From: Eledone cirrhosa
Lineage: Eukaryota
Direction: 5' to 3'
NCBI GenBank assembly: GCA_964016885.1
Contig: OZ024747.1
Coordinates: 66,588,001-66,652,000, forward strand
Length of the DNA stretch: 64,000 nucleotides
Both the position numbers and the translations under genes were made by a program. The notes below the pieces were generated by a model that saw only the letters and a list, made by a program, of their open reading frames with translations, was not told the DNA's origin and did no database searches. Positions 18,645-27,092 of this stretch are shown here, piece after piece. The first letter of the stretch is position 1, and each line of letters opens with the position of its first letter.

Positions 18645-21600
18645 GTTCTTTGAGTCTCAGTCATTGATGTTAGTTAACTGGAAAGTTTGTTGAAATGAAT
18701 ATCAAGCCACTACCTGCAGCCTCAGATATTCAGGACGTATCGGAGGGTTCTTGCTGTTCCCAGCAAGCATGCCCTTTGAAGCGTTCCAAAAAGCGTGAAG
18801 GGGCCAATTTTCTTTAACCATCCCTGGAAACTTTTTGAGATAGTCCCTAGTGCGCCTATGACAATCGGGATCACTTTGACTTCATGGCAGTTCCAAATCC
18901 TTTTTACCTCCCACTTTAAGTCCTGGTATCGGTTAATTTTCTCCCTCTCCTTCTCTTGCACTCTCGTGTCGAATGGGCAGGCCACATCCACAATCAGGCA
19001 CGATCTTTTTTCCTTGTCCAAAACCACCAGGTCAGGTCTATTGTGTTCCAGTTTCTTGTCCGTCTGTATCCTAAAATCCCACAGCACCTTCACCTGATCG
19101 TTTTCTATTACAGACTTTGGCTTATGCTCATACCACTTCTCAGAATGTGGTAAATTGTTTACTTTGCATAGGTGCCAGTGGATCACCCTGCCCATCACAT
19201 CATGTCTCCAGCCTTTATAGTGAGTCTGGGCTAGGTGTTTACACTCGGATACAATGTGAGCCACAGTCTCCTCTCTCTCTCTCCACAGATCCTGCACAGT
19301 GGGATAGCCTCCTCCTTGTAAATATGGTGTTTCAACCACTTCGTTTTGAGGGCCTGCTCTTGCGCAGCCATTAGCATTCCTTTTGTAGCCTTTTTAAGGT
19401 CTCCGCTTTTCAACCAGTTCCATGTCTGTGGATCTCTGAATTCAGTTTTCTCATGAAGGCTGTTCTTTCTCCTTGTTGTTATTTCCTCCTTGGACATCCC
19501 CTGGTCTATTGTCCTCTCCTTCAGTACAATTCTGAGCATTGGCTCCTTATTATCAGACACGTATTTGTGTAGGTTGTTTTTCTCCATCTGAACACAGTCC
19601 TCTATGCTGATAAGACCTCTTCCACCTTCAGATCTCCTTACGTAGAGTCTATCGACATCACTCCTCTTGTGGAACATGTTGTAGATAGTCAATAGCTTCC
19701 TAGTCTTCCTATCCATTTCTTTTTGTTCAGCAACATTCCATCTCAGAATTCCCGCACTGTACCTAATAATAGACACAGCTCGGGAATCTACTGCACTTAT
19801 GGCATTCCTACTGTTCAGATGTGACTTTAATACGCTCCTTACTCTCCGAATGTATTGAGATCTTATCAATTCCTTCATTTTTTTGTTCTTGATGTAATCA
19901 GCCACAGAACACCCAAATACTTGTATCCTTCTTCAGTGTCAATTTCCTTTATCATCTCACCTGTTGGTACCTAGATTCCGTTGCTTCTGCTCAATTTACC
20001 CATCTTCATCACAAGGACTCCACACTTACTAATACCAAATTGCATACATATATCATTGCTGAAAATACGGACAGTGTCAACGAGCACATCCAACTCCTTC
20101 TCACTCTTCCCGAAGAGCTTAAGATCGTCCATGAAGAGGAGGTGATTCGCAGTACACTGGTCAGGGGCATCAGGGCAAGGACAAACAACAGAGAGGACAG
20201 ACTATCTCCCTCTCTTGATCTTCACGCTTCCCAAGGATTCTCCAGTTGATGTTAACTCTGTCTCCCAGGACTTCATACTTTTGCCCAACAACTGTCTGAT
20301 GTTATCTGCCACCTTGAAGATCTCCAGGCTTTTGGTGATCCAAGAATGAGGCACCATGTCAAATGCCTTTTTGTAGTCTATCCATCCCATGGCAAGACCA
20401 GTGTGTTTCCTCTTGCAATTCCTCATTACCATCTTATCAATAAGTAACTGGACCTTTGTACCACGTGACTTCTTTCGGCGTCCTTTCTGTTCGTCCTGTA
20501 ACAATTGTTTGTGTGGAGGTGATGGTAGATTTCCTGAGACATAATGCTTGTCAACAGTTTCCACATTACGGACAGACATGTGATAGGTCTATAGTTGGTA
20601 ACATCATTACCCTTGATTCGGTCTTTCATTATCAGAACTGTGGTACCTTTTGTCAACCACTCTGGTACATCACCTGACATCAAGCAGTCATTGAACATGG
20701 TTGTCAGTTTCGGGTGGAGGGATGTTATGTTTTTAATCCAATACCCCTGCACACCATCTGCGCCTGGTGATATCCAGTTGGCTAGTTTTTTGGCCTGCCC
20801 CTTAAGAGTTTCAACTGTGATACTCAAATCAGTTTGTTGGTGTGCCTGTTCACTGATCTCCTTCTGTACTGTCTCAATCCACGCTGCCTGGTCATTATGT
20901 TTAACATCCTGCTCCCATATTCCTCTCCAGAATGTTTTAGTTTGTTCCGCCTCAGGGATCAAGTCGTTGCCTCTTTCTTTCCCTTCAAGCTGTCCAAACA
21001 GCATCTTCTGGTTGTTGTCGAACATGCGGTTCTGTCTATACTGACTGACTCTGCTCTCGTATCGCCTGATTTTTGCACTCTTTGCTACAATGCGTTGCTT
21101 CAGTTCCTCTATGATAATATTTAGCTTTTTCCTCCTAGTTTTGTACTTTATTTCCAGTTTTTTTTAGTGTCTATGTTTTTTAGTGTCCCATTCAGTAGGG
21201 ACTCAAGCTTTCCAATGTCATTTCTCATTTCCCTGATTTGACCACTCAGTCGTTTCTTCCACCAAGGCTCTGCTCTTTCTTGTCTGTTGTTTCCTCTCGC
21301 TTTTATACCAAGTAGTTTCCTCACCGTATTTGCTGTTGCTTTTAGGATATTGTTGCACTGGTGGAGGCTCCTCGCCTCAAGGTATGGGATGACTTTGTTT
21401 ACCTTAGCTGTTGTTTCTTTTAACTTTTTCCTGTCTACAAATCTTAGGTTCATAGGTCTCCCACTATCATTGTTCAATTCATCTACCACTAAGTTTAGGA
21501 AATCAACCAAATCTTGTCCTAGCCCGTCAGCATTCATCTCCTCAGTGGACGTATCTCTGTTCCAGGTATTATTTATCTCAGCATTCAGATCATTGTCTGC

Positions 21601-22360
21601 TTCGGGTGGTTCCTCCGTTCTCTCGACCTCTTCACTTTCATTTCCAACTGGCTCGTTTGACTGGCATACTCCACCCTCCATCTCCAAGCTAATCTCTCTT
21701 CTCAGTTCCTCCAGTTCCAGCTCTCTTATCCACCCATTAGTTCTTATTACCCGAGCCTGCCCGGCCAGTTTTTGTTCATCTAATTTAAATGGACCAATCT
21801 CGTTCCAGATGTTATGCATCCTTTTCCTATAGCCTTTCTCCTTGGGGTTACTCTTCAGGTAACATTGCATAACAGTTCCATTCAATTCTTTCGTCCAGTT
21901 GGTTCTGGTCCCTTTCCTTCTTCTTCTTCCTCCGACACCAGCAGTATTTGGTTGACAGCCAGGTCCCTGCTGCTGATCTAGGGAGCACCTGTTGGGTGAG
22001 AGTCTGTCACATGACATTCTAGTCTCCATTTCACCGTTATTCGAACTGTTTAGGTTCGACATTTAAACACTCTTATCGAGGATTGGCAAATGTATCGTTA
22101 CATAACCACCGGTGAATTACTCGTCTCCGGTAGTTTCGTCACTCCACGTGACTTTTCTGTGGCATTATCACGCTGTAGACGAACCCAAATAAACAAACAA
22201 ACAAACAGGCAGAAAAAACCCCAAAAATGAATAAGCATAAGTTTCATTGTAATGAAGTGTTTGAATGTCTGACTTAGTTTTTCCCTTCCCTTCTCTGTCC
22301 GCCCGTTTGTTTTTCTCTTCATTTTTATTTCCTTTACGTTTTTCGTTGTTGCTGTGCTGC
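18645..22360 (-). mobile_element. R4/Dong-clade non-LTR retrotransposon, copy 1 (decayed)
   Basis: Single-ORF RT plus C-terminal CCHC and restriction-like endonuclease; both ends abut (TAT)n; 5' boundary approximate. Confidence 0.85.
18722..22062 (-). pseudogene. Frameshifted RT-REL polyprotein of Dong-like copy 1
   Basis: [33 protein letters not shown] (~20110-20147), CRIC..ETVAHIVSEC, RHD, NRPDLVV and KINRYQDL across five or more frames, with small deletions. Confidence 0.9.

Positions 22361-22431
<71 letters not shown>
22361..22431. repeat. (TAT)n/(TAA)n tract separating the two Dong-like elements
   Basis: Directly visible; forms the 3' tail of copy 2. Confidence 0.95.
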
Positions 22432-25400
22432 GTTGCATTTATCTTGCTTTATGTTCATACGAGTTATCACCAAGTCACAACCAGTGACCTCAAGAGACAA
22501 CAAGGTCCGCCATGTTCAAGAAAGAACATACATATTCACACATGCATCTTTAATGTTTAGACTTGTGATGTAATTATATTGACAGAATCTTCCTTAGTAT
22601 ATGGGCTGTTCCCATTAGTACTATCTTTTGTATTTCTCCTATACGCGGGTTTCCTGGGATTTGCGATATGTAATCATTAGACCCCTTAGGTATCATTCCC
22701 AGAGCGCCTACAACCACTGGTATTGTTTTAGTTCTCAATTTCCACATTTTTCCAATTTCTATCTCCAGGTCCTTATACTTGCTCAATTTTTCAAATGTTT
22801 TTATAGATACATTCTTGTCTATTGGAACAGACATATCAATTAGCAGGCATACCCTCTTTTGAAAGTCCTTCAATATTATATCAGGTCTATTTGCATCTAT
22901 TTTTCGGTCTGTTTGGATGCTAAAGTTCCACAAGATTGAGATGTGATCTTTTTCAAGTATGGGAGGTGGTTGATGCTCCCACCAATTCTTTTGATGGGGC
23001 ATGTCAAAATGCTTACACATTATCCAATGTATGTATTGTGCAGCTCTGTCATGCCTGTTTAGGTATTCGGTTGGAGCTATAGGACTGCACATTGAAATTA
23101 TATGGTCAATGGTCTCTGGTTGTTTTTTGCATACACGGCATAATGGGCTGCACCCATTTTTTATTATGTTGGCTTGGTAATTTTTTGTTGGCAGACACTG
23201 ATCTTGTGCTGATATAATCAGTCCTTCAGTCTCCGATTTCAGTCCAGAGGATGCCAACCACTGATGGGTTAAAGTTTTGTCAACATCAGGATTGTTAGCT
23301 CGCTCTGGGTATTTTCCATACAGAGGCTTTTCTTGCCATTTCTTAGCCAGTTTCTGTAGCAGTTCTTTCTTTGCAGTTACTTTTACCTGCTTTGCTTTTT
23401 CTGTGTTTTCCATTTCAGCAGTAAATGGGACTTCTGAAATTTGTAGTCCATTACTGTATCTTTGTGCATCTTTTGTAATGGAATATGATCTTTTGATGCT
23501 TTCGTGTTTCAAAACGAGTTTGATCATCCAATAACGTGATTCCCTTAGATATGTAGATAATCCAATTGTTGCAGTTTTCAACGCAATGTCTAACTGGATT
23601 AACCCACGTCCTCCTTCTTTCCTAGGGAGATATATTCTATCTATATCTGCCTTAGGGTGATGCATTATGTGCATGGTTAAGAATTTTCGAATTTTTGTAT
23701 CGAGCCTACGGATCTCTGTGCTTGACCAGTTGATGACATTGTAACTGTAGGTTACTACTGGTATGGCAAGCGTGTTTATGGCATCGATCCTATTCCTTGC
23801 ATTCAATTCCGTTCTTAAGATTGCTCTTACTCTGCGGTAACATTCCTTCCTAATCCTTTCCCTCATTGTCGAGTGCTTGATTCCGTCTCCTTCACAAACA
23901 CCTAGATATTTGTAAGTTTTTTCTTGATCAAGTTCTCTTATCACGTTCCCCCGATCAAGATTAATGTCTGAACTCTTCAGCAGCTTTCCTCTGGTGAACG
24001 TTGCTTTGGCGCATTTATCTAGTCCAAACTCCATTTTAATGTCATCACTGAACTGCTCCACAGTGGATAATAGCCCTTGCAATTGTTCATCATTTTTTGC
24101 AAATAGTTTCAGGTCATCCATGTAGAACAGGTGATTAATGGTTTTGTCATAGACTTTATATCCATGTTTTGTTTCATTGAGCATTTTACTTAATGGTATA
24201 AGTGCGATGCAGAATAAAAGCGGTGATAAAGAGTCACCCTGAAAAATTCCACAATTAATATTAACTTCTCCAGCTTCCAGTGATTTTGTTTCACTATTCA
24301 AAAGGAGTGTCGTTTTCCATGTCTTCATACTGAATGACAAACACCTCCTGACAACGGGGGATATTTTGAAAATCTCTAAACATTTTTCAATCCAACTGTG
24401 TGGCAAACTATCGAATGCTTTTTTATAATCTATCCAAGCAATCGATAGATTTTTGTGTCTATTATGACAATCTTCCAGTATCATTTTGTTAACCAGAAGC
24501 TGATCCTTACAGCCATATGAGCCTCGTTTACACCCTTTCTGCTCAATGGGAAATAGGTCATTTGTTATCAGGTGGTCATATGTGTATTCAGTTAGGACTG
24601 ATGTTAAAATTTTATACATTGTGGTCAAGCAAGTTATCGGTCTGTAATTTTTGGGATTGTTTGTCTCATCATTCTTCGGAAGCAGGAATGTAATGCCGTT
24701 AACTAGCCATGATGGTATCTTTTCTGGCTCCTTAACTATTTCATTGTAAAGTTGGGCTAACAGCTCATGAGACTCTGTGAAGGCATTTATCCAAAAGTTT
24801 TGTATTTTGTCTTTTCCTGGGGATTTCCATTTGCTGGTTTTTCTTAGAGCCAAGCGCAGCTATTCAACTGTTATATTTTCCCATATTTGTTCCTCAAGGT
24901 GAGCTGTATCTTTCATTTGTCTGTCTATCCATGGGGCATGTATGTTATGAACTTTTTCTTCGGCCCAGATCTTTTCCCAGAATTCTTGCACTTCCTCCTT
25001 GGGTGGTATTGATTTAGCAGTTATTGTTGACTTACCAATTTTTCTGTAGAAGTTTCTTTGGTTGTTTTTGAACATATTATTGTCCTTATAGAATCTAGAT
25101 CGTTTTTCAAAGCGCCTTATACGAGCAGCTTTGGCCGACACTTTTTGCTTGATTATTTCTATCAGCATGTCTATGTCACATGTTGATTTTATACTGTACT
25201 TTCTTTTCAATTTTCTAAGTTTAGTTTGTTTAACATATTCACCTACTTTATAGTTTGTTAAAATTTCTATGTCAGATCGGAGAAGGTTTATTTGGCGATT
25301 GATGTTCTCTTGCCAAGTAGATTTCTTGTGGGAATTCCTTTGTTTTTTCATCTTCACTCCACATAAGTGAGTGGTGACTTTAGCCGATGCATAATAGAGA

Positions 25401-26340
25401 TGATTTAAATCAGTAATGTTTAGTTTGTTTGTGATGATAATGTTTTTGAGAATTATGTTAGTCTTGTGTATTATCTTTTGGTTCTGTTTGGAGTTCTGGA
25501 TCTTAGGGAGGGTGTCTCGTTGCCCCATGTCAGATTCTTTCATTTTCATCCATTCGATCATAATTTCATCCTTCAAGTTGGCAAGTTCATTCTCATTCAT
25601 TTCTTTATCATTTACAATCTCATTATTTTCATTTGGAGTTTCATCCTGAGCATGCACTCCCTCCACTTTTTCGATCCTTTCTTTAATTTGTTCTGTTGCC
25701 AGTGATTCCGCCCCAACCCTGGGATTCGAAGTGTTACAGTTTACCTCGTTTTCACTGACACATGTTTCATTTTCCCTTCGCTGACTTTGTGCTAATAGCT
25801 TGATCTGATCAATTTCTATATCAGTTAGTAACTTTCTTCTTACAATATTTCTTCGTATATTGGCTAGTTTGTTACTGTCAATATAGCCTCTGTTTTCGGG
25901 ATGTTTCTTTTTCCAGTTGATATATGTCTGTTCTGTATTCGATGTCTTTGATGGGTAGTACATGGCAGTGTAGAAAGCCTCAAGGACTTCTTTATTATCT
26001 TCCCTTGACAATTTTTCTCTCTTTTTCTTTGGATTTCTTGGTGGTGAGCATGGAGGGCCAACAGTAGGAGTATTCCGGTTATGGGAGGTCTCCAGCTCCG
26101 AAGTGATGGGAAGGTTTGAACCATTAGCTGATTTTTCGACCCCAGTCTGGTTCCTCTCTGAGGGACGCGGCCCTTTTTTACCCGGGTGACGGCCGATCCG
26201 GTATGAGACACGGCTATTCCCCGCCGGCCGCCATCCTGGTATTTCTTGGTCACGGGGTTTTCTTTTTGTTGTTTTTTTTAAAATTGTTATTATCATGAGT
26301 GGTTCCTTAATGTGAGCATTGCGTGGCTTAAGAATGAAAT
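22432..26340 (-). mobile_element. R4/Dong-clade non-LTR retrotransposon, copy 2 (nearly intact, different family)
   Basis: ~140-bp 3' UTR followed by (TAA)n; long RT-REL ORF. Confidence 0.9.
22574..26296 (-). pseudogene. ~1240-codon RT + CCHC + REL endonuclease ORF with one in-frame TAG at 24860-24862
   Basis: Track ORFs 24860..26509 and 22574..24853 are in the same frame (…NITVE*LRLALRK…). Motifs [47 protein letters not shown]. Start at ATG 26296 is inferred. Confidence 0.92.
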
Positions 26341-26344
26341 TATT

Positions 26345-26395
26345 AATAACTGTCTCCACTCCAGGCACAAGGCCAGCAATCACCCAGTGCATTAC
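26345..26395 (-). mobile_element. SINE family A 3' tail fragment with clustered A>G changes
   Basis: Minus strand GTAATGCACTGGGTGATTGCTGGCCTTGTGCCTGGAGTGGAGACAGTTAT versus ...GGGTAATTGCTGGCCTTGTGCC(A/T)AAAGTAGAAACAATTAT in the other copies. Confidence 0.8.
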
Positions 26396-26979
26396 AATAA
26401 TATAATATAGTTTTTGTTGTAGTTGGCTGTTATTGTTGTTGGCTATGTCAGTGGTAGTGCCGGGGCTTTTTATATTGTTGGTGAGGAAGGGGTGAGCCAG
26501 CAGTCCCATAGTTGTTGATGTTGACGTTTGGCCGGTGGCCAGGTCACGAAGTCAATCTATTTATATCTTTTGCTAGCCTCTCCCTTGTCTAGTGATACCG
26601 CCACCTTCCTCTTTCTCTCTCAAGTTAACAGGGGAATAGTGGTGGTAGCAATGAAGGAGTGGTGGCGGCGGCGATGGGATAGTGGTAGCAGTGATGGATG
26701 GGGTGGGGTGGTGGCAGCGGTGGCGTTGTGGTTACTGATATGTAGTATCTATGAGTTTGTGTTCGTATGTTTAATATATATTATTATTATATATTGTGTT
26801 GACATATTCCCGTAAAATTGGAATTAAACATTTTGTTAAAATTTGAGACAATAATAATAGTAATTATTATTATGATGCTGGGATTGATGGTGGTGGTGGT
26901 GAAATTGCCGTTATCTGGCTGTTATATTTAATGTGATGGGATAGGTGGTGTATCAAGTTTCTGGTGTTGGTGAAATTTT

Positions 26980-27092
<113 letters not shown>

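Follow-up and report, generated by a model that had tools for sequence, protein, structure and literature searches.

Marks left by host deaminases in retroelements are usually described from single, disabled copies. The closest precedents for the locus considered here are the ADAR-hyperedited avian retroviruses and the APOBEC-edited LTR elements. ADAR-linked A-to-G hyperediting has been described for RAV-1 (Felder 1994) and avian leukosis virus (Hajjar and Linial 1995), both as cited in the accessible sections of PMC8586724. APOBEC enzymes edit the DNA of vertebrate LTR retrotransposons, leaving G>A changes via cDNA deamination; the accessible sections of that account stress deactivation, and report only noise in invertebrates (Knisbacher and Levanon, PMC4866542). 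Hyper-editing of RNA is known from octopus, where, according to the available text of PMC5625713, the substrate is repeat-derived dsRNA and a 5′ G is depleted at the edited sites. A literature search covering titles and the beginnings of abstracts found no description of an animal LINE family in which ADAR edits have been fixed.

The DNA analysed (the window) is a stretch of 64,000 nucleotides from Eledone cirrhosa (contig OZ024747.1, positions 66,588,001 to 66,652,000). An earlier note on this window had drawn attention to six A>G changes in the tail of a SINE, and had proposed that an inosine-rich RNA was reverse-transcribed into the genome at this place. It was of interest, therefore, to determine what the piece is, how its changes are distributed in the genome, and whether ADAR or some other process provides the better explanation for them.

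The SINE tail and its host LINE

The minus strand of 26345–26395 corresponds to the final 51 nt of the family-A SINE, as judged by alignment to the copies in the window. It is a 5′-truncated tail whose limits are defined by LINE copies in which the same site is empty, and it is flanked by a 6-nt AT-rich duplication or microhomology. The alignment places a G where family A has an A at window positions 26381, 26362, 26361, 26357, 26354 and 26350, referred to below as piece positions 15, 34, 35, 39, 42 and 46, respectively. It is apparent that the six changes are real, and that they lie on the SINE-sense strand, as had been claimed. The sole other difference, a T for A at position 33 (window 26363), is shared by approximately one-quarter of 81 sampled SINE copies and, again as claimed, is not private to the piece. 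When the young SINE variant is taken as the reference, all of the family-wide differences of the piece are A>G on the sense strand of both LINE and SINE. The statement that each changed A follows a T or an A is literally accurate, but it carries no evidential weight, because the tail contains 15 As, of which 12 follow T or A in any case (P=0.18 for a neighbour preference within the piece). A search for a named SINE family corresponding to family A gave no usable match in the accessible portion of PMC4824008.

The earlier reading, in which a lone SINE had inserted beside a Dong-like element downstream, does not hold; the piece instead lies inside the 5′ UTR of that element. The window copy of the LINE (minus strand, 26977–22431) is a damaged but otherwise ordinary member of its family, 5′-truncated, with its start codon lost and with an internal stop. 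The remnant of its 5′ UTR occupies 26209–26977 (minus strand), with the truncation at 26977; the full UTR of other copies begins approximately 0.3 kb farther upstream. A deletion of about 124 bp at 26205–26208 (minus strand), private to this copy, removed the start codon of the ORF and fused an ATG within the insert in frame to it. Domain and protein matches point to a single RLE-type (Dong/R4-like) ORF at 22574–26204 (minus strand; stop at 24860–24862), encoding a reverse transcriptase and then a zinc-knuckle and endonuclease-like C-terminus. This is followed on the same strand by the 3′ UTR (22431–22573) and by a (TAA)n tail or target at the 3′ end of the LINE (22361–22430), and a (TAA)n/(CTA)n microsatellite is situated at the 5′ junction (26978–27091, minus strand).

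The reverse transcriptase domain matches RVT_1 with an E value of 8.9e-30, and the protein matches R2 proteins with an E value of 2e-25 over query residues 7–705 of a 761-aa frame. The translation contains what we take to be CCHC and endonuclease-like motifs. TAA repeats follow 87 of the 87 copies that retain a 3′ end and are present at 58 of 64 full-length 5′ ends, and an intact ORF of 1215–1216 aa was found in 7 of 100 sampled copies. A scan of the UTR of one copy for a 5′ HDV-like ribozyme gave no Rfam ribozyme match at E values up to 1. Judging from the single reverse transcriptase ORF, the R2-like C-terminus and the TAA junctions, the host element would be classified as a Dong/R4-type LINE.

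The piece is situated some 250–300 nt 5′ of the real start codon of the LINE. Coding constraint was rejected as an explanation for its composition, given this position in the 5′ UTR and the fact that its in-frame appearance is a product of the private deletion in the window copy. In intact copies, the ATG of the insert (window 26393 onward, minus strand; L002:1518–1631 and L010) opens an upstream ORF of approximately 37 codons. Other features of the element were also observed. A second RLE-type LINE family is joined to it head to tail via TAA tails in the window (18722–22360, minus strand), at L002:1–650, at L010 and at many other fetched loci. At L005 and L009, a different 5′ UTR, approximately 80 % identical, is present upstream of a breakpoint that the two copies have in common, some 280 nt 5′ of the piece; this represents a UTR swap.

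Genomic census and order of the changes

When the genome was searched with the piece and its flanks, at least 40 scored matches were obtained at 99–100 % identity, and the same LINE continued at all 30 of the loci that were fetched. A 35-mer diagnostic of the filled state gave 716 exact matches, and the empty junction gave 154 with up to two mismatches allowed. Among 100 copies sampled from one chromosome by means of a flank motif, 84 were filled and 14 empty, one carried an antisense SINE at the site and one was truncated there. The filled lineage outnumbers the empty one by approximately 5:1. The earlier note had asked whether other Dong copies carry the piece; they do, in their hundreds, and a single-locus event can be rejected on the basis of the 40 flank-containing matches and the 716 filled copies. 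Nor was an edited RNA inserted at the window locus, as had been supposed, since at least five of the six Gs in the window copy came from its family.

The empty-site copies are more diverged and carry the ancestral states of the LINE backbone. Five copies of the empty type have acquired independent sense-oriented SINE insertions at the site, from 26 nt to full length, and have A at all six positions. The G-rich tail joined to a SINE body gave no match in the genome with up to two mismatches allowed, and was found in none of the 81 sampled SINE copies, so that a common G-rich SINE subfamily, which the earlier note had named as an alternative, is rejected. Taken together, the empty older copies, the unedited independent inserts and the lack of a G-rich SINE indicate that A is ancestral at these positions and that the Gs belong to the LINE lineage. 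Assembly error was likewise rejected for the G state of the family; three further public studies yielded contigs that extend across the piece in its G state and that differ at 1 to 6 other letters over 290–450 bases.

The insertion site itself is a near-palindromic, AT-rich stretch of the Dong UTR that has been struck repeatedly by the SINE in both orientations (L031, L032, L033, L035, L036 and L159). The SINE has also inserted at a similar site in the short element described below (L311–L336). The repeated insertions in both suggest a sequence-specific target. It was also observed that seven empty-site Dong copies are arranged in tandem, with a spacing of 4.9 kb, at G000:C2:353612393–353641881.

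The six changes were not acquired simultaneously, contrary to the implication of a single event. Early filled copies mostly have G at positions 34, 35, 39 and 42 and A at position 15; A15 was found in 54 copies, and G15 was fixed later than the other four. G46 is present in only 36 copies, approximately 5 %. A few early copies carry rarer haplotypes, with G at 15 and 35 (L034), at 15, 34 and 35 (L037), or at 34, 35 and 39 (four copies), and these haplotypes are not nested. A42 is commoner among the early copies (4 of 54) than among the later ones (5 of an estimated 660; P=0.003). At the five derived Gs, an A was read in 15 of 419 instances versus 5 of 993 at native Gs (P=3e-5). The intermediates retaining A are mostly contiguous at the 3′ side. 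Position 35 (window 26361) has A in 7 of 84 copies, on scattered backbones, placing it among the highest of the element's non-CpG G sites.

Heterogeneous editing would produce both non-nested haplotypes and an excess of A at the derived Gs. The odd early haplotypes may also have arisen by recombination or by SINE-driven conversion, given that the LINE backbones are mosaic and the trees weak. Those trees retained 161 and 122 copies (at least 1300 or at least 3300 aligned bases, respectively; six poorly aligned loci were dropped elsewhere), were rooted on an empty copy by assumption, had weak support and took no account of recombination. The frequency of G46 is 13 times the mean per-site rate, and it had at least five origins versus about 2.7 expected, a figure based on the approximately 22 of 36 G46 copies that could be placed. 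G46 was nonetheless set aside as evidence of recurrent editing, as many of these copies may descend from one sub-master.

Chance and edited retrocopies of the same SINE

Between empty and early filled copies, no more than 14 backbone columns changed in 4.5 kb, two of them by A>G, versus four A>G changes in the 51 nt of the piece. Ordinary SINE copies, with columns having a common second allele left out, show A>G at 1.03 % of sites (33/3202) and T>C at 1.22 % (44/3611). Among 81 SINE tails, 74 have no A>G change, six have one, and a single old copy has three. At the time-matched rate, four or more changes among 15 As have a probability of 2e-5; the most conservative rate, which combines the whole later history of the UTR with donor divergence, raises this to 2e-3 and gives 1.6e-4 for five or more. 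The region was chosen after the fact, but no other 51-nt interval in the element has more than three lineage changes of the same type over its whole history, and no other type of substitution is fixed in the piece. The A>G cluster exceeds chance and is strand-specific and clustered, in agreement with the earlier note.

As a control, the genome, with an estimated 180,000 copies of the SINE, was searched for copies of one SINE segment in which G replaced at least four of seven As, and for its T>C counterpart. Four matches were obtained in either case. The earlier note had proposed that equally frequent T>C clusters would count against editing; the two counts are indeed equal, but three of the four T>C matches come from inverted SINE pairs, in which they form the antisense arm and the sense arm has A>G changes, and this is consistent with A>G on the RNA strand; the fourth is a lone antisense arm. 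The inverted pairs are carried by a short element with a tail of (ATGT)n repeats, in five of its copies (in oriented coordinates, L299:1300–1556, L300:1276–1556, L302:1475–1755, L305:1475–1755 and L308:1603–1883). Each copy bears 18–28 A>G changes on one strand, extending over both arms and in a pattern that differs from copy to copy; these comprise 9–18 A>G on the sense arm and 8–11 T>C on the antisense arm. The pair is predicted to fold as a long hairpin.

The changes are concentrated in the paired part of the hairpin. In 15 edited arms, pooled, 159 of 393 As were edited there, as opposed to 9 of 111 in the SINE head (P=6e-12). Grouped according to the base on the 5′ side, the edited fractions were 76/118 after T, 53/145 after A, 27/82 after C and 2/35 after G. 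The control hairpins bear the ADAR signature known from octopus RNA and not a WA-only pattern. Copies of the short element with a single SINE were edited in only 1 of 25 cases (P=4e-5). That one copy, L311, shows that a lone SINE can be edited without a retained partner. These results show that edited RNA carrying the family-A SINE is retrocopied in the E. cirrhosa genome, which supports that part of the earlier proposal, and the five-copy short element is a much stronger ADAR fossil than the Dong piece.

Further edited segments were noted in the course of this search. At L311 (oriented 1602–1787) and L303:1475–1555, a SINE segment stands alone in antisense orientation, with 15 and 12 T>C changes, respectively, and with no partner in the DNA fetched. 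Within the 1.6 kb of L301:468–2044, three SINE segments, not all in one orientation, have 13, 10 and 6 A>G changes on one genomic strand; a fourth segment situated between them is unedited. L301 looks like a retrocopy of a longer edited RNA. For the L300 hairpin, a 70-nt contig from another sample matches exactly across seven edited sites and the arm junction, and a second contig has one difference; no contig from other runs spans the whole hairpin, so these matches provide only partial support for it.

Origin of the changes and comparison with known systems

The A>G cluster in the Dong piece was probably caused by ADAR, a reading based on the indirect evidence of the statistics and the hairpin control. 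It would begin with the insertion of a short SINE tail into the 5′ UTR of one Dong/R4-type source copy. Older copies retain the empty AT-rich site, at least six other independent SINE insertions have unedited tails, and relative to the young SINE variant the family-wide insert has only RNA-strand A>G. The 51 nt would then have formed a duplex with the tail of an antisense SINE, probably within a read-through transcript. Editing of positions 34, 35, 39 and 42 by ADAR would have taken place when the tail was captured or shortly afterwards, with position 15 probably following in a further round. The inosines were likely fixed as G by reverse transcription in the founder copy of a subfamily of more than 700 members, and the G state spread with the LINE lineage. 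Position 46, the sixth G of the window copy, changed late, in about 5 % of copies, by editing or by ordinary mutation. The earlier idea of reverse-transcribed inosine-rich RNA survives in that ADAR is the likeliest cause, and falls in that there was not one edited SINE RNA at the window locus.

Several observations bear on this reading. The piece has passed through RNA and reverse transcription, lying as it does within a multi-copy element that encodes a reverse transcriptase. Unedited antisense SINE tails are situated near many Dong copies (44 matches, duplicates included); no edited antisense arm was found at 233 Dong loci, some of them fetched twice, and no long local hairpin was found around the piece. 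In the sense arms of the controls, positions 34, 35, 39 and 42 were edited in 0–1 of 8 cases and positions 3, 8 and 16 in 7 of 8, so that the positions edited in the Dong piece are the reverse of the control preference. The other nine As of the piece show no G in 84 copies. Elsewhere in the LINE there are no A>G clusters, and singleton A>G is only slightly above T>C (P=0.06); an element-wide ADAR bias was accordingly not found, there being neither clusters nor a clear strand bias. Editing of Dong copies is not ongoing. The predicted duplex with an antisense SINE is maintained by G:U pairing (−91.3 vs −90.9 kcal/mol). Since the duplex would remain intact, the end of editing calls for the loss of a partner in cis; a partner present only episodically at the founder locus would account for it. 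Selective escape from antisense pairing is unsupported at the level of G:U pairing.

The main rival to ADAR is error-prone DNA synthesis at the time of insertion, in which a polymerase of the eta or iota type, acting on the sense strand of the insert, would have misincorporated G opposite T at WA sites during a single event, and later differences would stem from mutation and recombination. Pol eta mutates A at WA motifs, according to the accessible text of PMC4686820, and its preference for such motifs lends this explanation support, as all six sites are WA. No partner RNA would be necessary, and four changes lie within 9 nt already at the earliest stage. The likelihoods of the six contexts, 1.1e-4 under an empirical ADAR model and 2.4e-4 under a WA-only mutator, slightly favour the latter, and the context of the piece itself cannot separate the two. 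Error-prone synthesis is nevertheless rather unlikely. The five other sense insertions at the same site are unedited at the six positions, ordinary SINEs have no sense-strand excess of A>G (the rates given above), position 15 changed in a separate step, and every hyper-A>G SINE segment found combines hairpin or transcript-strand geometry with edited CA sites. Alternatively, ADAR may already have edited the donor RNA, a SINE within a different long transcript, before a single capture by template switching or insertion, the Dong RNA itself never being edited. This places the same enzyme at another stage and is partly counted within the preferred explanation. It draws on the retrocopied, edited SINE-bearing RNAs at L301, L303 and L311, on the lack of ongoing editing of Dong copies, and on the 3′-contiguous A-state intermediates, which fit later SINE-driven conversion. 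The 54 early copies with A15 and G at 34–42 would, however, require a second event, and position 3, edited in most control arms, is untouched, which fits a duplex starting at the truncation point; as a separate account it is decidedly unlikely.

Ordinary mutation and reverse transcriptase errors in the master lineage, noticed because clusters were sought, are very unlikely to be sufficient. The lineage-level changes are rich in A>G (23/82) and T>C (17/82), the UTR evolves fast, the region was selected post hoc, and the origins of G46 require no special cause. Even at the whole-lineage UTR rate with donor divergence, however, the cluster of four or five remains improbable, and neither a comparable 51-nt interval nor another fixed substitution type was found. 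An extremely unlikely explanation is that the Gs were driven by selection on RNA structure or on the upstream ORF created by the insert, or by a template switch at a quasi-palindrome. The numerical predominance of the filled lineage would fit selection, and in older copies a 10-mer that matches the G-rich core at all but one base is present in inverted orientation some 0.3 kb upstream. Against this, the haplotypes have no stable fold in common, there is no longer inverted template, antisense pairing with the SINE is barely altered, and by inspection the upstream ORF is open in both the A and the G states. No convincing candidate for a local hairpin or a quasi-palindromic template was identified.

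It is possible, if somewhat doubtful, that the ADAR reading extends further: that ADAR edited active germ-line LINE RNA over more than one round of retrotransposition, only at the SINE-derived dsRNA part, and that the Gs were ratcheted through successive masters until they became diagnostic characters of a subfamily at hundreds of loci. If ADAR made the changes at all, edits to RNA entered a replicating lineage and turned into markers by which a subfamily is known, giving RNA editing a path to heritable sequence change in a heavily editing animal; ADAR activity in the germ line would be implied, and repeat dating based on divergence would be biased. The effect is small, five or six UTR bases to which no function is assigned. 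The empty, early filled and late filled copies, together with the unedited independent insertions at the same site, provide a dated series in which these ideas can be tested.

The host LINE resembles Dong/R4-clade elements, namely Bombyx Dong, as described in the accessible text of PMC3774820, and the recently active Dong-R4 families of Octopus vulgaris (PMC13282606, available sections), in its single reverse transcriptase ORF, its RLE-type C-terminus, its TAA-repeat junctions and in being a young family of high copy number. A SINE-derived, A>G-marked UTR insert is mentioned in the accessible text of neither account, and the words 'editing' and 'ADAR' do not occur in that of the latter. The hairpin controls share a repeat substrate and 5′ G depletion with the hyper-editing of the octopus transcriptome, as set out in the available part of PMC5625713; there the changes are confined to RNA, whereas in E. 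cirrhosa they are in the genome. As in RAV-1 and avian leukosis virus, to the extent that these are covered in the accessible sections of PMC8586724, clusters of RNA-strand A>G in a reverse-transcribing element have been fixed in DNA. The E. cirrhosa case differs from them in concerning an endogenous non-LTR LINE, with four to six sites confined to a captured SINE fragment and present in more than 700 copies. With the APOBEC-edited LTR elements, as presented in the accessible text of PMC4866542, it shares a putative host deaminase, strand-biased genomic clusters and diversification in one step; unlike them, the Dong changes are A>G at the level of RNA, and the marked lineage stayed active. What is new relative to these systems is that the edits likely entered an active LINE lineage and were amplified with it, leaving an inherited, family-wide mark and not a one-off scar.
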